Of a stretch of DNA of 50,996 bases, positions 24,526 to 50,538 are shown piece by piece (the stretch's first letter is position 1; each line of letters starts with the position of its first letter). The stretch lies in sequence record SRR31156797_2631. One strand, 5' to 3'. Below the pieces are notes generated by a model. The model made no database searches. It saw only the letters and a list, made by a program, of their open reading frames with translations, and was not told the DNA's origin. Both the position numbers and the translations under genes were made by a program.

Positions 24526-25554
24526 TTATTTGATTTTTTTTTGCCGATCTTTATCCGTTTTAAAATGATCAAATCCACCATAGGCAACTCTCTGCTCTCG
24601 GACATCGTTGTTCTTCTCACGAGTAACCAGAACAACACCCGATCCTTGACAGATGCGCCCCACCCTGTGCAGATCAAGGGAACAAGCTTGTCCTATCTGC
24701 TCCACGTCACCTGCAGCGTCAGGAGGAGCAGTAAACAGCAACTCGTAGTCTTCTCCACCATTTATCGCTAGCCTCTCAGGGGAAGAATCAAGAAAAACGG
24801 CAGCCCTAGCCAGAGGCGCAGACAATGGTAACCGGTCAGCATAAATTTCACCTTTCACTTTTGACCGCTTGCATAAGTGGGCAAGATCCGTTGCCAAGCC
24901 ATCGGATAGATCCATCATGGAACTGACAACACCGCGCCTGCCCAGTTCCAGCCCCAGTTGGGTTCGGGCCTCGGGGTTAAGGTGTGCATTGAGCAGCGGT
25001 TGAAAATCCTGCCCAACAATATCGATACCACGAGAAAAAATCTCAAGGCCAGCAGCAGCATGGCCTAACCAGCTGCTCACCCAAATGTCTTCACCGAGCG
25101 AGGCATTGCTTCTGTATAGTACATGATCTTTTTTCGTCTCTCCGATAACAGTCACTGTAAAACTATACCCTTCCGGACTGCATACAGTGTCTCCACCAAT
25201 CAGGATGCAGCCATAATCCCTGCATCCCCGAGCAATCCCCTGGGAAAATGCTGAAAACCACTCTTTGTCAAAGGATTGAGGCAAACCTGCTGAAAGCAGT
25301 ACAAACATCGGTTCACCACCCATTGCGGCAATGTCACTAACATTGACAGAAATCGATTTCCTCCCAAGCAACTCTGGCGGGTGCCACTCACGGTCAAAGT
25401 GAACCTTCTCTACAAGGGTATCCATGGTCAGCAGCCATACGGCATCACCATCTTTTTCGATCACAGCGCAGTCATCACCGATGCCCTGCACGACCCCTTC
25501 GCCCCTGTTTGGAGCCAAGTTAGTTATATATTGTATAATGTCTCGTTCGTTCAA
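24526..25554 (-). CDS. thiL: Thiamine-monophosphate kinase
   Basis: GIGDDCAV, NVSDIAAMGG, IGGDT, MDLSDGL..DL, GGEDYELLFT; TTGA overlap with the ptsI stop. Confidence 0.95.
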   Translation of the reverse strand: MNERDIIQYITNLAPNRGEGVVQGIGDDCAVIEKDGDAVWLLTMDTLVEKVHFDREWHPPELLGRKSISVNVSDIAAMGGEPMFVLLSAGLPQSFDKEWFSAFSQGIARGCRDYGCILIGGDTVCSPEGYSFTVTVIGETKKDHVLYRSNASLGEDIWVSSWLGHAAAGLEIFSRGIDIVGQDFQPLLNAHLNPEARTQLGLELGRRGVVSSMMDLSDGLATDLAHLCKRSKVKGEIYADRLPLSAPLARAAVFLDSSPERLAINGGEDYELLFTAPPDAAGDVEQIGQACSLDLHRVGRICQGSGVVLVTREKNNDVREQRVAYGGFDHFKTDKDRQKKIK

Positions 25555-42154: not shown

Positions 42155-43558
42155 ATGTCCGTCAGGGGATTTGCAAAGATGATCAAATGGAGACGACCCG
42201 TATCATTTCTTCTTGCTTACTGTATCCTGCCTTTTATCTTTACAGTGCTCAACCTGAATGTTCCGGAAACTGCTCATGCAAATAGCAGGGTTCTGGTCCT
42301 GGAAGTAAAAGGAGTAATCGGGCCCGCCCTTTCCGAATATATTCAAAAAGGTTTAACTACGGCCCAGCAACAACAGGCAAACGCTGTTATTCTGCGTATT
42401 GACACTCCCGGTGGTCTAGACAAATCCATGCGAGAGATCATTAAGGCTATTCTTGCCTCTCCGATTCCGGTGGCCTCTTTTGTTGCCCCAGGGGGTTCCA
42501 GAGCCGCCAGTGCTGGAACTTATATCCTCTACGCCAGTCACATCGCGGCCATGACTCCTGCCACCAACCTTGGTGCAGCCACCCCTATTAGTCTAGGCAG
42601 GCTTCCAAAATCCACTTCTCCGTCCGACGAAGGAGATAAAGAAAAGCCAAAAGATGTCTCACTGCCCGACACCTTGCAAAAAAAAATCATCAACGATGCC
42701 GAAGCATACATCAAGGCGCTGGCAACCAAACGCGGCCGCAACAGTGAATGGGCAGCAAAATCTGTAACCCAGGCTGAAAGCCTGACCGCAAAAGAGGCCT
42801 TACGTTTAAAAGTTATAGATATCGTAGCTGATAACATCCAAGATTTACTCATCCAAATGGACAGCAGAAAAGTCAATATGGTTTCCGGCCAACACATCCT
42901 GCAGACCCAAAATCCAATAATTGCATTCCAGCCACCTGACTGGAGAACTCGCCTCTTGATGGCAATCACGGACCCCAACATTGCCTACATCATGCTCTTG
43001 CTCGGTATCTATGGGCTTATTTTCGAAATGGCAAACCCCGGATTTGTTTTACCAGGCGTTATTGGGGCGATATCAATTGTCATAGCGCTCTACACCTTCC
43101 AAGTTATGCCCATTAATTATGCTGGACTGTTATTACTCATCATTGGCATGGCTTTCATGGTTGCCGAGGCCTTTGCTCCCAGTTTCGGCGCGCTGGGGGC
43201 AGGTGGCATTATAGCCTTTATCACTGGTTCAATCATTCTTATGGATGAGCCCTCTTTTCGAATATCCATCCCCATAATTAGCGCAACTGCCTTTACTTCG
43301 GCTGGATTTCTCATTCTTATAGCAGGGAGGTTGCTAACCATTCGTCGCAAAAAAATAATCACCGGTGAGGAACAGATGCTCGACAGTCTTGGCCAAGCCA
43401 TGGAGGACTTCGACACTAAAGGTCGTGTCAGGATTAACGGAGAGTCCTGGCTGGGGCGATGTTCACAACCGGTTAAACGTGGTCAAACCGTCAAAGTAAC
43501 CGCCCAAAATGGTCTGATCTTAGACCTGGAACTTGTTGAGGAGAAAAAAAATGATTGA
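42155..43558 (+). CDS. nfeD: NfeD long-form membrane serine protease
   Basis: [16 protein letters not shown] (Ser), [16 protein letters not shown] block, C-terminal OB fold (G.V.INGE.W); start uncertain. Confidence 0.9.
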
Positions 43559-44336
43559 AGCTTCCCATGCCCTTCCCATTGCTGTTTCTCTTTTTCTTGT
43601 GGTGGGTCTTTTTACCATATCCATCAAGGTTGTCCGCGAGTACCAACGGCTGGTTGTCTTTTTTTTAGGCCGTTTTCAAACGGTGAAGAAACCTGGACTA
43701 CGCCTTATCATTCCTGGCATTCAACAGGCTGTTAGGGTCGATTTGCGTGTGATCACCATGGATGTTCCCAGCCAGGACGTTATCTCCAAAGACAACGTAA
43801 CAGTACGAGTCAATGCGGTACTGTACTTCAGAGTGGTAGAACCGGAAAAAGCGATTATCCAGGTTGAGGATTATTTCAACGCAACCAGTCAACTAGCCCA
43901 GACCACCCTACGGTCTGTCCTGGGGCAGCATGAACTGGACGAGATGTTGTCGGAACGGGAGAAGATGAATGCCGATCTTCAGGAAATAATAGACAAACAA
44001 TCAGATGCGTGGGGCATTAAAGTGACCAACGTGGAAATCAAGCATGTCGATCTAAACGATAACATGATCCGTGCCATTGCCAAACAGGCAGAAGCAGAAA
44101 GGGAAAGACGGGCAAAGGTTATTCACGCTGAAGGGGAATTGCAAGCCTCGGAAAAATTACTGGCAGCAGCTAATATTATCTCCCAAAATCCACAGGCATT
44201 GCAGTTACGATATTTGCAGACTTTAAATGATATCTCAAATGAGAATGCATCAACCATTGTCTTTCCCTTACCCATTGATACAATCAGTTCAATTTTTGAT
44301 AAAAAGACTGAATCCTCACCAAATCAGGATTGTTAG
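43551..44336 (+). CDS. Stomatin/SPFH (slipin) protein
   Basis: [62 protein letters not shown] at 43551 with GAGGAG RBS. Confidence 0.93.
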
Positions 44337-44522
44337 CTTGAACTGTTATTACTGCTCCTGCTAAAATAATAGTACAGGCAGGGATTTGTAGAAAAAACCT
44401 GGTGTTTCAACTTATTGATACATCCTTAAGATGTCTCAAAAATACCACAAAAAACCAAAGGAAGCTACCACCAGAAAAACAACCAGACGTGCAAAAGTTC
44501 ACCCCTTACAATGTGAGAGCCT

Positions 44523-46916
44523 ATGAAGATTCGCACCGTTACCCAAGAAGAAGCCTACCACCACTGTAATGCAGATGATTTCCCTTTTGAGACTACAGCC
44601 GAAATAAAAGAATTTGTCCGTTACATTGGTCAGGATCGTGCTTTGGAAGCGGTCGAATTTGCCATATCCATGCCTTTACGGGGATTCAACCTTTTTGTTG
44701 TAGGCCCAGAAGGATCTGGGCGTCACAGTGTTGTTCAATCCTTTATCCACAAGCAGGCAAAAGAAAAAGCCACCCCTCGTGACTGGTGCTATGTTTATAA
44801 TTTTGAGAGTACCCATCAGCCGCTTACCCTTGAATTTCCTCCCCAGCAGGGTCCCGTTTTCAAAAAAGAAGTATCCCAACTTATCGAAGCGGCCAAAACA
44901 ACCCTCCCCACCATCTTCCAAGGAGACGATTATCGTATCAAAAACCGGGCAATTGGCGAGAAGCTGCAGCAGATGGTGGACAAACTCTACCAAGATCTGG
45001 TGATAAAAGGCAGGGAGCAATCCATTGCCGTTATCAAAAACGATCAGGGAATGATGTTCTCTCCTATGGACGACAAAGGGGAGCCCATGGATTTGGAGTC
45101 GTTTAAAAAATTACCCGAGGCAACCCAAAAAAATATTGAGAAAACCATAGAAAAACTACATGACACACTGCACAGGACTGTACATCAAATAAATCAGCTC
45201 AATCGAGAAGCAAAGGAACAGAAAAATAAATTAAAAGAAGAAACAGCAAGCCTCTCTGTCAGCCACCTCATTGAATCTCTATTGACCAAATATTCTGATC
45301 ACAAAAAAATCATAACATATCTCAACAGTATTCGTACCCAGCTCATCAAACACGTGGATGACTTTCTGGATAATACATCTGCTAACCAGAATCCTTTCAT
45401 CTCACTCCAGTCAGGCCGCCCCACATTCCACAAATATGAAGTGAATGTACTTGTCACGCAAACCGAGGATGGAGCCCCTGTTATATATGAAGACATGCCA
45501 ACCTACCAGAATATCCATGGCCGCATTGAACACCAGGCACAGATGGGCATGCTCACCACCGACTTCTCTCTGATCCGGTCAGGTGCTCTGCATCGAGCTA
45601 ATGGAGGTTACATAATTATTGATGCGAGGAGGCTTCTCATGCAGCCTTTCGCCTATGAAGGGCTGAAGCGAACCTTACGGTCCCGTCAAATAGGGATGGA
45701 ACCGGTCGAGCGCCTTCTTGGCCTGGTGAGCACAGTCTCTTTAGAGCCGGAACCCGTTCCGCTCGAGGTCAAGGTGGTGCTCATCGGTGAACCCATGATC
45801 TACTACCTGCTGCAAGCGCACGATCCTGAGTTCAAGACCCTGTTTAAGGTACAGGCGGATTTTGAATATGACATGGAACGTGATGCCGCCAGCCAACAGC
45901 AATATGCAGCTTTGATAGCAAGCCTTGCTTCGGAAAAAGACCTGCTGCCGCTGCATAAAACAGCAGTGGCTCGAGTCACCGAAGAGGCAGCCCGCCACGC
46001 CGGTGACTCGGGTAAGCTTTCACTGCATATTCGCAAAATAGCAGACCTAATAAAAGAGGCTGATTACCTTGCTCGCAAAACAGACAAACAATGTATTGAT
46101 GGCCAGGATATAGAAATGGCACTACTGGCATCCAAACGACGTGGCGGGAGGATAGGTGACCGCATTTTTTCTTCCATTGAAGAGAACATCCGTCATATTG
46201 ATACCTGTGGGAAGAAAATTGGCCAGGTCAATGGCTTGTCTGTGGTTGGACTCGGTGAGAATTCCTTTGGATTTCCAACCCGTATCACAGCGGTGACCAG
46301 GCCAGGGAAAGGCAACATCGTTGATATTGAACGTGAGGTGGAGTTGGCAGGCCCCATTCATTCAAAAGGTGTAATGATCCTTGGCGCATTTTTAAACTCT
46401 CGTTATGCCCGCCACATTCCCCTGGGCCTGCAGGCCAGCCTCGTCTTTGAACAATCTTATGGCGGCGTCGAAGGCGACAGTGCCTCATGTGGAGAACTGT
46501 GCGCCCTGCTCTCTTCTCTCTCAGGCGTGCCAATCCTGCAGAATATTGCTATCACCGGCTCTGTCAGCCAACTGGGAGAAATTCAGCCAGTAGGTGGGAT
46601 AAATGAAAAAATTGAAGGTTTTTTTGATATTTGCAAAGTGCGTGGATTGACAGGAACAGAGGGTGTCATTATTCCGGAAACAAATATCCGTCACCTCATG
46701 CTCAAAAAAGAGGTGGTCGATGCCATTGGCAAACAGCAGTTTACCATCTACCTTGTCACAAAAGTAGACGAGGCTATAGCATTACTCACCGGAATGGAAG
46801 CTGGAGAACTCAGTGAAGAGGGATACCCGAAAGGTTCCATTAATAGCAGAGTCGAAGCTGCCTTGCTTAGCTTTGCACAGGACCTACGCGCATTTAATAA
46901 GGGAGATGAAACCTAA
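44523..46916 (+). CDS. LonC-type Lon-like protease
   Basis: IGQDRA, degenerate Walker A GPEGSGR, GALHRANGGY, GQVNGLSV, EQSYGGVEGDSAS (Ser), GGINEKIEGF (Lys). Confidence 0.9.
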   Translation: MKIRTVTQEEAYHHCNADDFPFETTAEIKEFVRYIGQDRALEAVEFAISMPLRGFNLFVVGPEGSGRHSVVQSFIHKQAKEKATPRDWCYVYNFESTHQPLTLEFPPQQGPVFKKEVSQLIEAAKTTLPTIFQGDDYRIKNRAIGEKLQQMVDKLYQDLVIKGREQSIAVIKNDQGMMFSPMDDKGEPMDLESFKKLPEATQKNIEKTIEKLHDTLHRTVHQINQLNREAKEQKNKLKEETASLSVSHLIESLLTKYSDHKKIITYLNSIRTQLIKHVDDFLDNTSANQNPFISLQSGRPTFHKYEVNVLVTQTEDGAPVIYEDMPTYQNIHGRIEHQAQMGMLTTDFSLIRSGALHRANGGYIIIDARRLLMQPFAYEGLKRTLRSRQIGMEPVERLLGLVSTVSLEPEPVPLEVKVVLIGEPMIYYLLQAHDPEFKTLFKVQADFEYDMERDAASQQQYAALIASLASEKDLLPLHKTAVARVTEEAARHAGDSGKLSLHIRKIADLIKEADYLARKTDKQCIDGQDIEMALLASKRRGGRIGDRIFSSIEENIRHIDTCGKKIGQVNGLSVVGLGENSFGFPTRITAVTRPGKGNIVDIEREVELAGPIHSKGVMILGAFLNSRYARHIPLGLQASLVFEQSYGGVEGDSASCGELCALLSSLSGVPILQNIAITGSVSQLGEIQPVGGINEKIEGFFDICKVRGLTGTEGVIIPETNIRHLMLKKEVVDAIGKQQFTIYLVTKVDEAIALLTGMEAGELSEEGYPKGSINSRVEAALLSFAQDLRAFNKGDET

Positions 46917-47110: not shown

Positions 47111-47779
47111 ATGAACGTACACGAAGCCCTTCTCGCCCGTAAATCAACCCGCGCCTTTCTTGATAAAGAGGTGAGTAATGAAAAAATAGTGAGAATCCTG
47201 CAATCAGCCCGCCATGCCCCCTCCGGCACCAATGCCCAGCCTTGGCAGGTGGCTGTGGTTTCTGGTCAGAAAAAAAAGGACCTGACAACAGCAATGGAGA
47301 ATGCATTTAAAGAGGAAAGCAGCACCACAATGGATTATCAGTATTATCCGCTTGAATGGCGCGACCCTTACAAAAAAAGACGCGTTTCGTGTGGCGCACA
47401 ACTCTACGATGCCCTAAATATAAAACGGCAGGATAAAGTGGCTCGTCTTACCCAGTGGACTGCGAATTACCAAGCGTTTGGCGCACCAATGATTCTTTTC
47501 TTCTTCCTGGATCCGGTCATGAAAAAAGGTTCTTTTCTTGATTACGGCATGTTCATTCAGTCCATTATGCTGGCAGCAGTTGAAGAAGGCCTTGCGACCT
47601 GTGCCCAAGCCGCTTTGGGTCAGTTTCCGGAATTAGTTAAAACTTCGCTGGGATATGATCAAGAGACCATCCTTATCGGAGGGATGGCCCTTGGATACGA
47701 AAAGAAAGAAGCGCCGGTCAATAATTACCGAACGCCGCGGGAAGAGGTTGAAGTGTTTACCCGTTTTTTTGATGAATAA
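47111..47779 (+). CDS. Nitroreductase family protein
   Basis: RKSTRAF, APSGTNAQPW, DYGMFIQSIMLAA..GLATC, GMALGY. Confidence 0.93.
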   Translation: MNVHEALLARKSTRAFLDKEVSNEKIVRILQSARHAPSGTNAQPWQVAVVSGQKKKDLTTAMENAFKEESSTTMDYQYYPLEWRDPYKKRRVSCGAQLYDALNIKRQDKVARLTQWTANYQAFGAPMILFFFLDPVMKKGSFLDYGMFIQSIMLAAVEEGLATCAQAALGQFPELVKTSLGYDQETILIGGMALGYEKKEAPVNNYRTPREEVEVFTRFFDE

Positions 47780-49874: not shown

Positions 49875-50137
49875 AATTATTTATCGAGCATTTGCGGCAC
49901 GCATGGAAGTAATGATCAGATCATGGATTTCAATACATCATAGCTGCCTTGGAAATAAACGAGATCGTCAGACAACCTATGGCCGGATGTTTGGGCCCAA
50001 TTCCTGAAGCAGAGATCAAGTTGATCAGAGGCACACTCCAGAGAGGGCAGTTGACAGGTAACGAACGATTTCGCCAGTAAGTATCTCAGAGTTTCGGGAT
50101 CCGTATCTCAAATAAGGGGCCTGGCCGCCCCAAAAAG
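49875..50137 (+). mobile_element. Degenerate 3' remnant of a REP-associated tyrosine transposase (RAYT/IS200-like)
   Basis: Frameshifted pieces NYLSSI, DQIMD and LGNKRDRQTTY, then IPEAEIKLIRGTLQRGQLTGNERFRQ*VSQSFGIRISNKGPGRPKK with an internal TAA at 50078. Matches my recollection of RAYT C-termini ending GRP(K/R)K. Confidence 0.6.
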
Positions 50138-50187: not shown

Positions 50188-50421
50188 CTACGATATCATT
50201 TTGATGGCTGTAATAACAACTCCATAATTTCGTTCTTCCCTTCGGTGAATAGCTCCACCAGACTCAGGTATTATACTATTCATCTTTTCAGCCATATACG
50301 GGACACAGAGAAAAGTAAATTGCTGCCCCACATTCATTTTGCCAAGACGTGCCCGCACGTCATCAAAACCCCATCAGCAGTCTTTCCTGTAATCCATATC
50401 TATCCGAACACGTTTTCTCAT
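50188..50421 (-). CDS. Putative selenoprotein, TusA/SirA-like sulfur-carrier fold, 77 aa with Cys15-Sec16
   Basis: Manual translation MRKRVRIDMDYRKDC-U(TGA 50376..50374)-WGFDDVRARLGKMNVGQQFTFLCVPYMAEKMNSIIPESGGAIHRREERNYGVVITAIKMIS*; TusA-like length and pattern; SECIS-like hairpin directly downstream of the UGA. Confidence 0.72.
50337..50376 (-). promoter_or_regulatory. Bacterial SECIS-like element
   Basis: UGA, 12 nt, then GACGUG-CGGG-CACGUC (G-containing apical loop), extendable by a UUUUG/CAAAA lower stem. Confidence 0.7.
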
Positions 50422-50538
50422 ATTTTTCCCAGTTATGAGTATATTGAATGGATGGACTTTCTGTATGAAATCAGTTAAGTCACCCTTTTGAGCAGTAAGA
50501 TGGTTACAATCTCACCTCTCCTGTACTGATTTGATATT

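Follow-up and report, generated by a model that had tools for sequence, protein, structure and literature searches.

The window analyzed here is the whole 50,996-nucleotide (nt) stretch of sequence record SRR31156797_2631, and the locus in question is a short gene on its minus strand (Table 1). At this place a list of open reading frames (ORFs) made with translation table 11 gives just one ORF, of 56 amino acids (aa), starting at GTG 50358. Reading through one in-frame TGA yields a 77-aa ORF that runs from ATG 50421 to TAG 50190-50188; its product begins with M-R-K-R-V-R-I-D and contains the motif D-C-U-W-G, where U stands for selenocysteine (Sec). A first-pass annotation of this DNA had proposed the same frame, with its coordinates and its single TGA, and sequence and translation confirm it. 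Taken jointly, the evidence presented below makes it very probable that the locus is a functional, free-standing selenoprotein gene in which UGA would be read as Sec with the help of a selenocysteine insertion sequence (SECIS).

Table 1. Features of the selenoprotein locus and of other parts of the window
Feature	Position	Strand	Remarks
Probable selenoprotein gene	50188..50421	-	77 codons plus TAG stop, ATG at 50421; from sequence, translation and conservation in relatives
In-frame TGA, codon 16, predicted to be read as Sec	50374..50376	-	TGA in 42/42, 15/15 and 30/30 loci
TGC codon of Cys15, vicinal partner of Sec16	50377..50379	-	Cys invariant, TGC and TGT used freely
GTG (Val22), ORF-finder start of the 56-aa ORF	50356..50358	-	GTA or GTC in other subfamilies
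Putative SECIS core hairpin, GACGUG-CGGG-CACGUC	50346..50361	-	12 nt after TGA; encodes D21-V-R-A-R25; 6-bp stem, 50361-50356 with 50351-50346; 4-nt loop CGGG, 50355-50352
Outer UUUUG/CAAAA stem	50337..50368	-	50368-50364 with 50341-50337; predicted fold, closest relatives only
Terminator-like G+C stem with T-rich tail	50106..50131	-	57 nt past the stop codon; consensus match alone
Antisense 77-aa ORF	50245-50478	+	
FG-GAP-repeat ORF, 501 aa	48298-49803	-	separates the selenoprotein and nitroreductase genes
Nitroreductase gene	47111-47779		
NfeD-SPFH (Band 7) pair, then LonC/LonB-like AAA protease gene	42155-46916	+	
c-di-GMP-I-GGC riboswitch aptamer, RF03167	36619-36693	-	72.6 bits, gathering score 59
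GMC-oxidoreductase-like ORF, 666 aa	34488-36488	-	
thiL ORF	24526-25554	-	sole AIRS-domain ORF of the window

The in-frame TGA proved to be conserved. All 42 related DNA loci have TGA at this codon of the alignment, with K-D-C before it and W-G after it; 16 of these loci are genome contigs (named Desulfobulbus, Desulfogranum, Desulfocapsa and Desulfobia) and 26 are from metagenomes, and together they represent 37 distinct 90-nt sequences. The sequence [DN]-C-TGA was likewise present in all 30 loci fetched at the level of the order and in all 15 fetched at the level of the phylum. Of 401 genomes of this order (Desulfobulbales), 121 had the family in a whole-genome profile search, about 29 of them with two or three copies; in a phylum sample it was detected in 20 of 401 genomes. 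The nearest relative of the window copy is found in Desulfogranum marinum DSM 2058 (G001, L002), with 81% identity and a support of 100/99 for the two-row clade.

Members of the family are 72 to 98 aa long and form several paralogous subfamilies, in Desulfobulbales and in others of the phylum, which keep [DN]-C-U throughout. Within the order, these read D-C-U-K-G-F-K-D-V-R-A-R-L, D-C-U-K-G-Y-K-D-V-R-L-R-L and D-C-U-K-G-V-K-D-V-R-R-R-L; those recovered at phylum level read D-C-U-K-A-Y-x-D-V-[SG]-L-C-L, D-C-U-A-G-F-L-D-V-S-L-R-L and I-D-S-R-K-D-C-U-K-G-L-V-G-V-G-L-R-F. The Cys preceding the Sec position is nearly invariant across all subfamilies, while its codon is free to vary (21 TGC and 13 TGT among 34 sequences). 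When the W-G motif was followed over 72 loci, the codon in front of it was TGA in 47 cases and TGG, TGY, TAA or TAG in none; the remaining 25 loci belong to subfamilies with another residue after the TGA. For the DNA loci of the family that were read, the codon at the Sec position was TGA or, once, TAA, and never TGG.

Selection on the protein was estimated from 34 distinct sequences over 71 codon columns. The ratio of nonsynonymous to synonymous polymorphism (pN/pS) was 0.26 in the read-through frame, with 0.09 for codons 1 to 15 and 0.32 for codons 17 to 71. For the other five frames, four values lay between 1.05 and 1.78, and one antisense frame gave 0.37. Among the 71 columns, codon position 1 was variable in 44, position 2 in 34 and position 3 in 62. 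The expectation of the first-pass annotation, namely a TGA conserved together with the residues on both of its sides, is therefore borne out by the three sets of loci (42/42, 30/30 and 15/15) and by these two partial pN/pS values.

The same data bear on the idea that the real product is the 56-aa ORF, with the 21 codons upstream serving as a leader or an upstream ORF and the hairpin regulating translation or transcription. Such a product would agree with ORF finders and with most database entries, but it would leave the strongest purifying selection of the gene outside the protein (codons 1 to 15), as well as codons 17 to 21, which are conserved in frame. Moreover, other subfamilies have GTA or GTC, neither of which is a start codon, in place of the GTG, and the hairpin would bury the start codon. 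We consider this reading highly improbable.

Another possibility was that the locus is a pseudogene that arose by a TGG-to-TGA nonsense mutation, or that the true gene lies on the opposite strand. The antisense 77-aa ORF stays open in the window as well as in 21 loci, a consequence of its exact codon complementarity to the sense frame; its pN/pS is 1.23, and it contains stops in 5 of the 34 sequences. As to the nonsense mutation, homologues with Trp at position 16 had been named by the first-pass annotation as its expected mark, and database proteins of this kind do exist. A word-indexed protein search returned eight relatives, of which three are 56 to 57 aa long and begin with M-R-A-R-L, and five are full-length with W at position 16. 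The shortened forms include an NCBI 'hypothetical protein', whereas the W-bearing full-length proteins come from ENA only, on contigs of 503 to 794 nt. At the DNA level, however, TGG was found in 0 of 72 loci, so that only the protein half of this test points to a nonsense mutation. The Trp residues of the ENA proteins likely result from a gene-calling model with TGA=Trp applied to short contigs. A homology check restricted to proteins would mistake the gene for a nonsense mutant. The prediction that gene callers would miss it was right, as the proteins in databases carry W at the TGA position or are shortened to about 56 aa. A wider set of ENA predictions (P0004-P0008, P0010, P0014 and others), on contigs of about 0.5 to 1.5 kb, also has Trp where the family DNA has TGA.

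Copies that have really decayed look different from the window copy. Frameshifts or extra stops are present in L015 and L016/L042, and L079 (G168:C227) is frameshifted by a 1-nt insertion directly after the TGA. In L076 (G327:C24), the Sec codon is TAA and the hairpin is intact; the same genome holds a copy with one TGA. Altogether, TGA at every one of the 42, 30 and 15 loci with no TGG, selection on both sides of the TGA, the antisense pN/pS and the GTA/GTC codons allow us to set aside the readings as a pseudogene, an antisense gene or two ORFs, and the first two of these are refuted by the comparative data.

We then examined the RNA hairpin that follows the TGA. The 6-bp stem with its 4-nt loop, 12 nt past the TGA, and the additional UUUUG/CAAAA stem had both been described from the single sequence, and both are present. 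The outer stem is confined to the window copy and its closest relatives (L001, L002, L017 and L018) and is not conserved in other relatives. For the core, codon usage was compared within the window's subfamily (34 sequences). Codons 21 to 25 (D-V-R-A-R), which encode it, have a codon entropy of 0 to 0.32 bits, compared to 1.3 to 2.0 bits for the other invariant or nearly invariant codons of four- or sixfold degeneracy (such as R4, R12, G18, G32, A44, G56 and V69). Asp codons served as a control: D14 is GAC in 13 sequences and GAT in 21, against 33 and 1 for D21, and codons 8 and 10 also alternate freely between GAC and GAT.

No covariation could be seen inside the window's subfamily alone, because the stem is nearly invariant there. 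The analysis was therefore carried out on 79 sequences (74 distinct) from subfamilies with the peptides DVRARL, DVRLRL, DVSLCL and GVGLRF over the hairpin. In this set, 99.8% of the 444 cells were paired, a proportion that dropped to 19 to 70% when the 3' partner was slid by 1 to 3 columns. The closing pair (36-41) was GC in 45 sequences, AU in 25, CG in 2 and GU in 1, and the second pair (32-45) was AU in 66 and GC in 7. Two-sided changes were counted in 35 cells, compared to 10.1 +/- 2.3 in shuffles, none of 500 shuffles reaching 35. All TGA subfamilies keep the 6-bp/4-nt hairpin at a distance of 12 nt, even though the encoded peptide differs, and the second base of the loop is G in every sequence. 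As a negative control, the three TGA-free homologues fetched (with T-L or I-L) were examined, and no more than 3, 4 and 3 of their six stem positions can pair. We conclude that the hairpin is selected at the RNA level, its structure being conserved by compensatory changes.

The dimensions of the hairpin were compared with those of a bacterial SECIS (bSECIS). The model given in the legend to Fig. 2 of PMC13188914 has a loop of 3 to 9 nt, a stem of 4 to 16 bp, G at loop position 1 or 2, 16 to 37 nt between UGA and loop, and a minimum free energy of at most -7.5 kcal/mol. The family hairpin falls within the limits of that legend, with a 4-nt loop, a 6-bp stem, G at position 2 and 18 nt from UGA to loop; the energy of the consensus structure is -7.8 kcal/mol. 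A further standard of comparison was provided by the SECIS of the selD genes in the same order, which lies just 3' of its UGA, inside the ORF, and starts its stem 12 nt after the UGA in 4 of 5 related genomes, exactly as in the family. The two elements differ in stem length, which is 6 bp in the family and 8 bp in 4 of the 5 selD hairpins; in addition, the sequence of the family hairpin hardly varies inside the window's subfamily, and no lower stem is conserved.

The machinery for Sec incorporation is encoded by the related genomes. Among five genomes carrying the gene, selD was found in all five, each time with one in-frame TGA of its own, while the SelB wing domain and a tRNA-Sec (72 to 74.5 bits) were each found in four. 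The selA gene was present in the one gene-carrying genome tested. Desulfogranum marinum DSM 2058 has all four components (selA, SelB, selD and tRNA-Sec). TGA conservation, selection, covariation and the spacing shared with selD thus back the claim that a selenoprotein gene with adjoining Cys and Sec and a SECIS-type hairpin lies hidden at this locus.

Several observations nevertheless weigh against a selenoprotein. Folded on its own, the window sequence gives a z score of -1.26, and 22 of 200 shuffles fold equally well. Fully paired 16-mers (6 of 6 positions, 4-nt loop) occur 377 times in 101,960 window positions, or about once per 270 nt. A single hairpin is thus at chance level, and it is only through the comparison with relatives that this one stands out. 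An Rfam scan of the locus and of the whole window gave nothing near threshold at the locus. The co-occurrence of gene and machinery is uninformative, since SelA is near-universal in the order (362 of 401 genomes). The window itself contains no sel genes. Its one AIRS-domain ORF was considered as a selD candidate and rejected, as it scored 318.9 bits with the thiL model TIGR01379 and 60.5 bits with the selD model. Finally, the searches yielded no homologue in which Cys replaces Sec, an uncommon situation among selenoproteins: the TGA-free matches inspected at order level were paralogues with T-L or I-L, or fragments. The pattern D-C-C-W-G was absent from all 401 genomes, a pattern that fits only 47 of the 72 known loci.

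The lack of Cys homologues would suit a recoding of the UGA as something other than Sec, either a near-cognate read-through stimulated by the hairpin, with insertion of Trp, Cys or Arg, or a regulated stop that yields a 15-aa peptide as well as the full-length protein. UGA is, moreover, the leakiest of the bacterial stop codons. Such recoding does not account well for a hairpin that lies within the bSECIS limits and starts, like the selD SECIS of relatives, 12 nt from the UGA, nor for the presence of the Sec machinery in these relatives. The TGA also stands beside an invariant Cys, which is a known Sec context in the C-U families, and TGG, only one transition away from TGA, was seen at 0 of 72 loci. 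Recoding without Sec is in our opinion very unlikely.

The TGA-free paralogues of the same order (L074, L075 and L077, and the proteins P0044 and P0060) have T-L, I-L or T-R where the family has C-U, and they have neither the TGA nor the hairpin. In the tree, four TGA-free sequences with T-L or I-L form one clade (support 100/99) beside sequences of the TGA type; the row L104 carries C-U. This fits a single loss of the Cys-Sec pair, in a tree of unknown root.

The surroundings of the gene were next considered. Neighborhoods differ from one subfamily to another and reveal no common partner, which counts against any single proposal for function. Upstream of the window gene there is a divergent dksA/traR gene, which it shares with its four closest loci alone. 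In one subfamily, eight loci have a gene for a CxxCxxCC-domain protein no more than 20 nt upstream (in one locus, 146 nt), and seven of these loci also have a convergent 4Fe-4S gene; three more loci have the 4Fe-4S gene with no CxxCxxCC match. This arrangement was noted for L047, L050, L051, L056, L058, L070 and L071 (and also for L049, L054 and L061); the CxxCxxCC-domain (PF03692) protein has 220 to 260 aa, its gene being directly upstream, and the convergent 4Fe-4S protein is about 248 aa long. In another subfamily the gene follows CreA, and TatC is also among the neighbors of other subfamilies. The most distant subfamily (L118-L123) places the gene -14 to 84 nt upstream of a same-strand tRNA-dihydrouridine synthase gene (dus) in 6 of 7 loci. 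That region is conserved more widely, with an ABC ATPase or arginase gene upstream and DivIVA downstream, and the dus linkage may be an inherited gene order.

In the window, a 501-aa FG-GAP-repeat ORF separates the selenoprotein gene from a nitroreductase gene. It looks like an insertion in the lineage of the window, because the nitroreductase gene adjoins the selenoprotein gene, within about 100 nt after it, in L002 and L018. Beyond these genes stand the NfeD-SPFH pair and the Lon-like protease gene of Table 1; a Lon-like gene is also near the selenoprotein gene in L018 and L030. Three terminator-like sites were found in the region, compared to 0.5 +/- 0.8 in shuffles of it, including the one that follows the gene. 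Elsewhere in the window, the riboswitch aptamer RF03167 was located about 130 nt upstream of the GMC-oxidoreductase-like ORF.

What kind of protein the gene encodes was addressed by profile comparisons. The first-pass annotation had described it as TusA/SirA-like, a proposal that retains some support from four weak and concordant leads. First, the TusA profile PF01206 (curated cut-off 28.6 bits) gave sub-threshold matches in 2 of 40 members, one with E = 1.9e-4 and 21.6 bits over profile positions 14-70, the other with E = 0.028 over positions 8-70. Second, a family profile of 40 sequences, aligned by hhalign with 14 TusA domains of the same genomes, gave P = 9e-4 and a probability of 23%, over 54 colinear columns that extend from helix 1 to the C-terminus. 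Third, 3 of the 7 members of a TGA-free paralogue cluster are named 'TusA-related sulfurtransferase' in JGI/IMG. Fourth, the three named language-model clusters nearest to the TGA-free paralogue consist for 95 to 99% of PF01206 proteins (scores 0.77 to 0.79, with 180 to 181 shared features), which we take as a lead only.

Other results speak against this part of the interpretation. The window protein has no match at E <= 10 in Pfam or NCBIfam, and thus none to PF01206, whose cut-off no family member reaches. In hhalign, the window's own subfamily reached a probability of only 1% with TusA, and the TGA-free paralogue 0.45%. Sequence and profile searches of the PDB gave nothing relevant, the single match (E = 1.2) being to the C-terminus of an ABC ATPase. 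The CPxP motif is absent: the site reads D-C-U-[WKRASQI]-[GA], with no proline. A six-frame search of five carrier genomes with PF01206 did not pick up the family gene, and no longer or fused form of the protein was found at E <= 0.001, which is weak evidence. On these scores the protein is not filed here as a member of PF01206. The statement that the UGA falls exactly at the CPxP cysteine holds only approximately, for the C15/U16 region, as extrapolation of three alignments places the TusA Cys opposite D14, C15 or U16. With these points weighed together, the protein probably adopts a TusA-like beta-alpha-beta-alpha-beta-beta sandwich fold.

A mechanism can be outlined on this basis. UGA16 would be decoded as Sec by SelB and tRNA-Sec, the signal being a minimal bacterial SECIS inside the ORF, 12 nt from the UGA. 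The Cys-Sec pair would sit where strand 1 passes into helix 1, the site of the persulfide-forming Cys in TusA. Cys15 and Sec16 are the only redox-capable residues conserved across all TGA subfamilies, Cys39 being present in some of them. If the pair does occupy the TusA position, the most economical model is one in which the Sec16 selenolate is the nucleophile, and it would accept a sulfane sulfur or a selenium atom. Alternatively, Sec16 may form an intramolecular Se-S bond with Cys15, in an eight-membered ring as in the C-U of thioredoxin reductase. In either case the protein would be a small chalcogen carrier or redox shuttle, serving different partner proteins in different subfamilies. We put this mechanism forward as a possibility that falls somewhat short of an even chance. 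More tentative still is the full scheme, in which the family would be the first Sec-bearing branch of the TusA-type fold, with an obligate Cys-Sec pair, several paralogues per genome in sulfur-cycling Desulfobulbales, no Cys-only counterpart and a selenolate relay of sulfane sulfur or selenium, the T-L paralogues being derived and non-catalytic.

The main rival to the carrier mechanism is a role in metal binding or sensing. The protein would then be a selenoprotein with another small alpha/beta fold or a new fold, and the Cys-Sec pair would be a ligand for soft metals (Hg, Cu or As) or a redox sensor. Neither the profile of the window's subfamily nor that of the TGA-free paralogue matches TusA, CPxP is missing, and the C-U dipeptide is the signature of several metal-linked bacterial selenoproteins; the families SaoL, SaoC, HgcA and MbdU are connected to metal or organometal chemistry in the table of PMC13188914 and in the available part of 10.1101/2022.07.06.499078. 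On the other hand, each of the four independent weak leads indicates TusA and none of them another family, and no metal-resistance or metal-transport gene recurs beside the gene. We regard this alternative as rather unlikely.

The family was not found in Pfam or in NCBIfam release 20, nor in the table of 119 families of the May 2026 review PMC13188914, in which entries with only cd or PTHR identifiers were not directly scanned. The first-pass annotation had taken SirA-like selenoproteins to be known already; this was not the case in that review, where 'SirA' and 'TusA' have 0 occurrences. No such family is named in the available parts of the BSepDB paper, the deep-Sep paper or 10.1101/2022.07.06.499078, whose supplementary tables may list more. 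A literature search, in which most subscription papers were outside coverage, returned nothing on a Sec-containing TusA or on a SirA-like selenoprotein in deltaproteobacteria. As far as sequence comparison goes, we did not find the family among described selenoprotein families; the proposed recoding mechanism would itself be ordinary and not a new principle. The finding adds a selenoprotein family to about 30% of the sampled Desulfobulbales genomes, often in 2 or 3 copies, in a clade that, according to the available part of PMC12013277, already holds selenoproteomes of record size. Detection pipelines lean on Cys-for-Sec homologues, as described in the portions available of PMC12013277 and PMC13188914. 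As no such homologue was found here, the family would be expected to escape methods that rely on Cys/Sec pairs, which reveals a blind spot. Should the likeness to TusA be true, Sec would be tied to the sulfur-relay chemistry of bacteria that disproportionate sulfur or reduce sulfate. The gene is present (L002) in a cultured isolate, Desulfogranum marinum DSM 2058, making these proposals directly testable.

Two known groups of proteins invite comparison with the family. It resembles TusA/SirA/YedF (PF01206) in its size of 70 to 80 aa, in the way hydrophobic strands and helices are predicted to follow one another, and in a reactive chalcogen residue that would lie in the loop joining strand 1 to helix 1. 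A strand with G-x-x-[FL]-x-[FV] comes 16 residues farther on, and V/I-x-K is found at the C-terminus, again as in TusA. It differs by a Sec beside the Cys, by the absence of CPxP and by profile matches that are below the cut-off or lacking. The second group consists of the C-U selenoproteins SaoL, SaoC, SaoB, HgcA, MbdU, KCU-star and Csac_0668 (PMC13188914), which likewise have a vicinal Cys-Sec pair, and whose genes are also cut at the TGA in databases, as noted in the available part of 10.1101/2022.07.06.499078. When three family members were compared with NCBIfam release 20 at E <= 10, SaoL (NF040728), SaoC (NF040734), MbdU (NF045648), KCU-star (NF033934) and HgcA (NF040863) were not among the matches; the scan gave two chance matches with E of about 0.1, and no sequence relationship to the known C-U families. 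In animal thioredoxin reductase, the vicinal Cys-Sec of the C-terminal G-C-U-G closes a selenenylsulfide ring. The pair of the family, like that of the C-U selenoproteins, would be able to close an Se-S bond or to chelate a soft metal, but it is located near the N-terminus of a 77-aa single-domain protein, whereas in the C-U selenoproteins it lies near the C-terminus.

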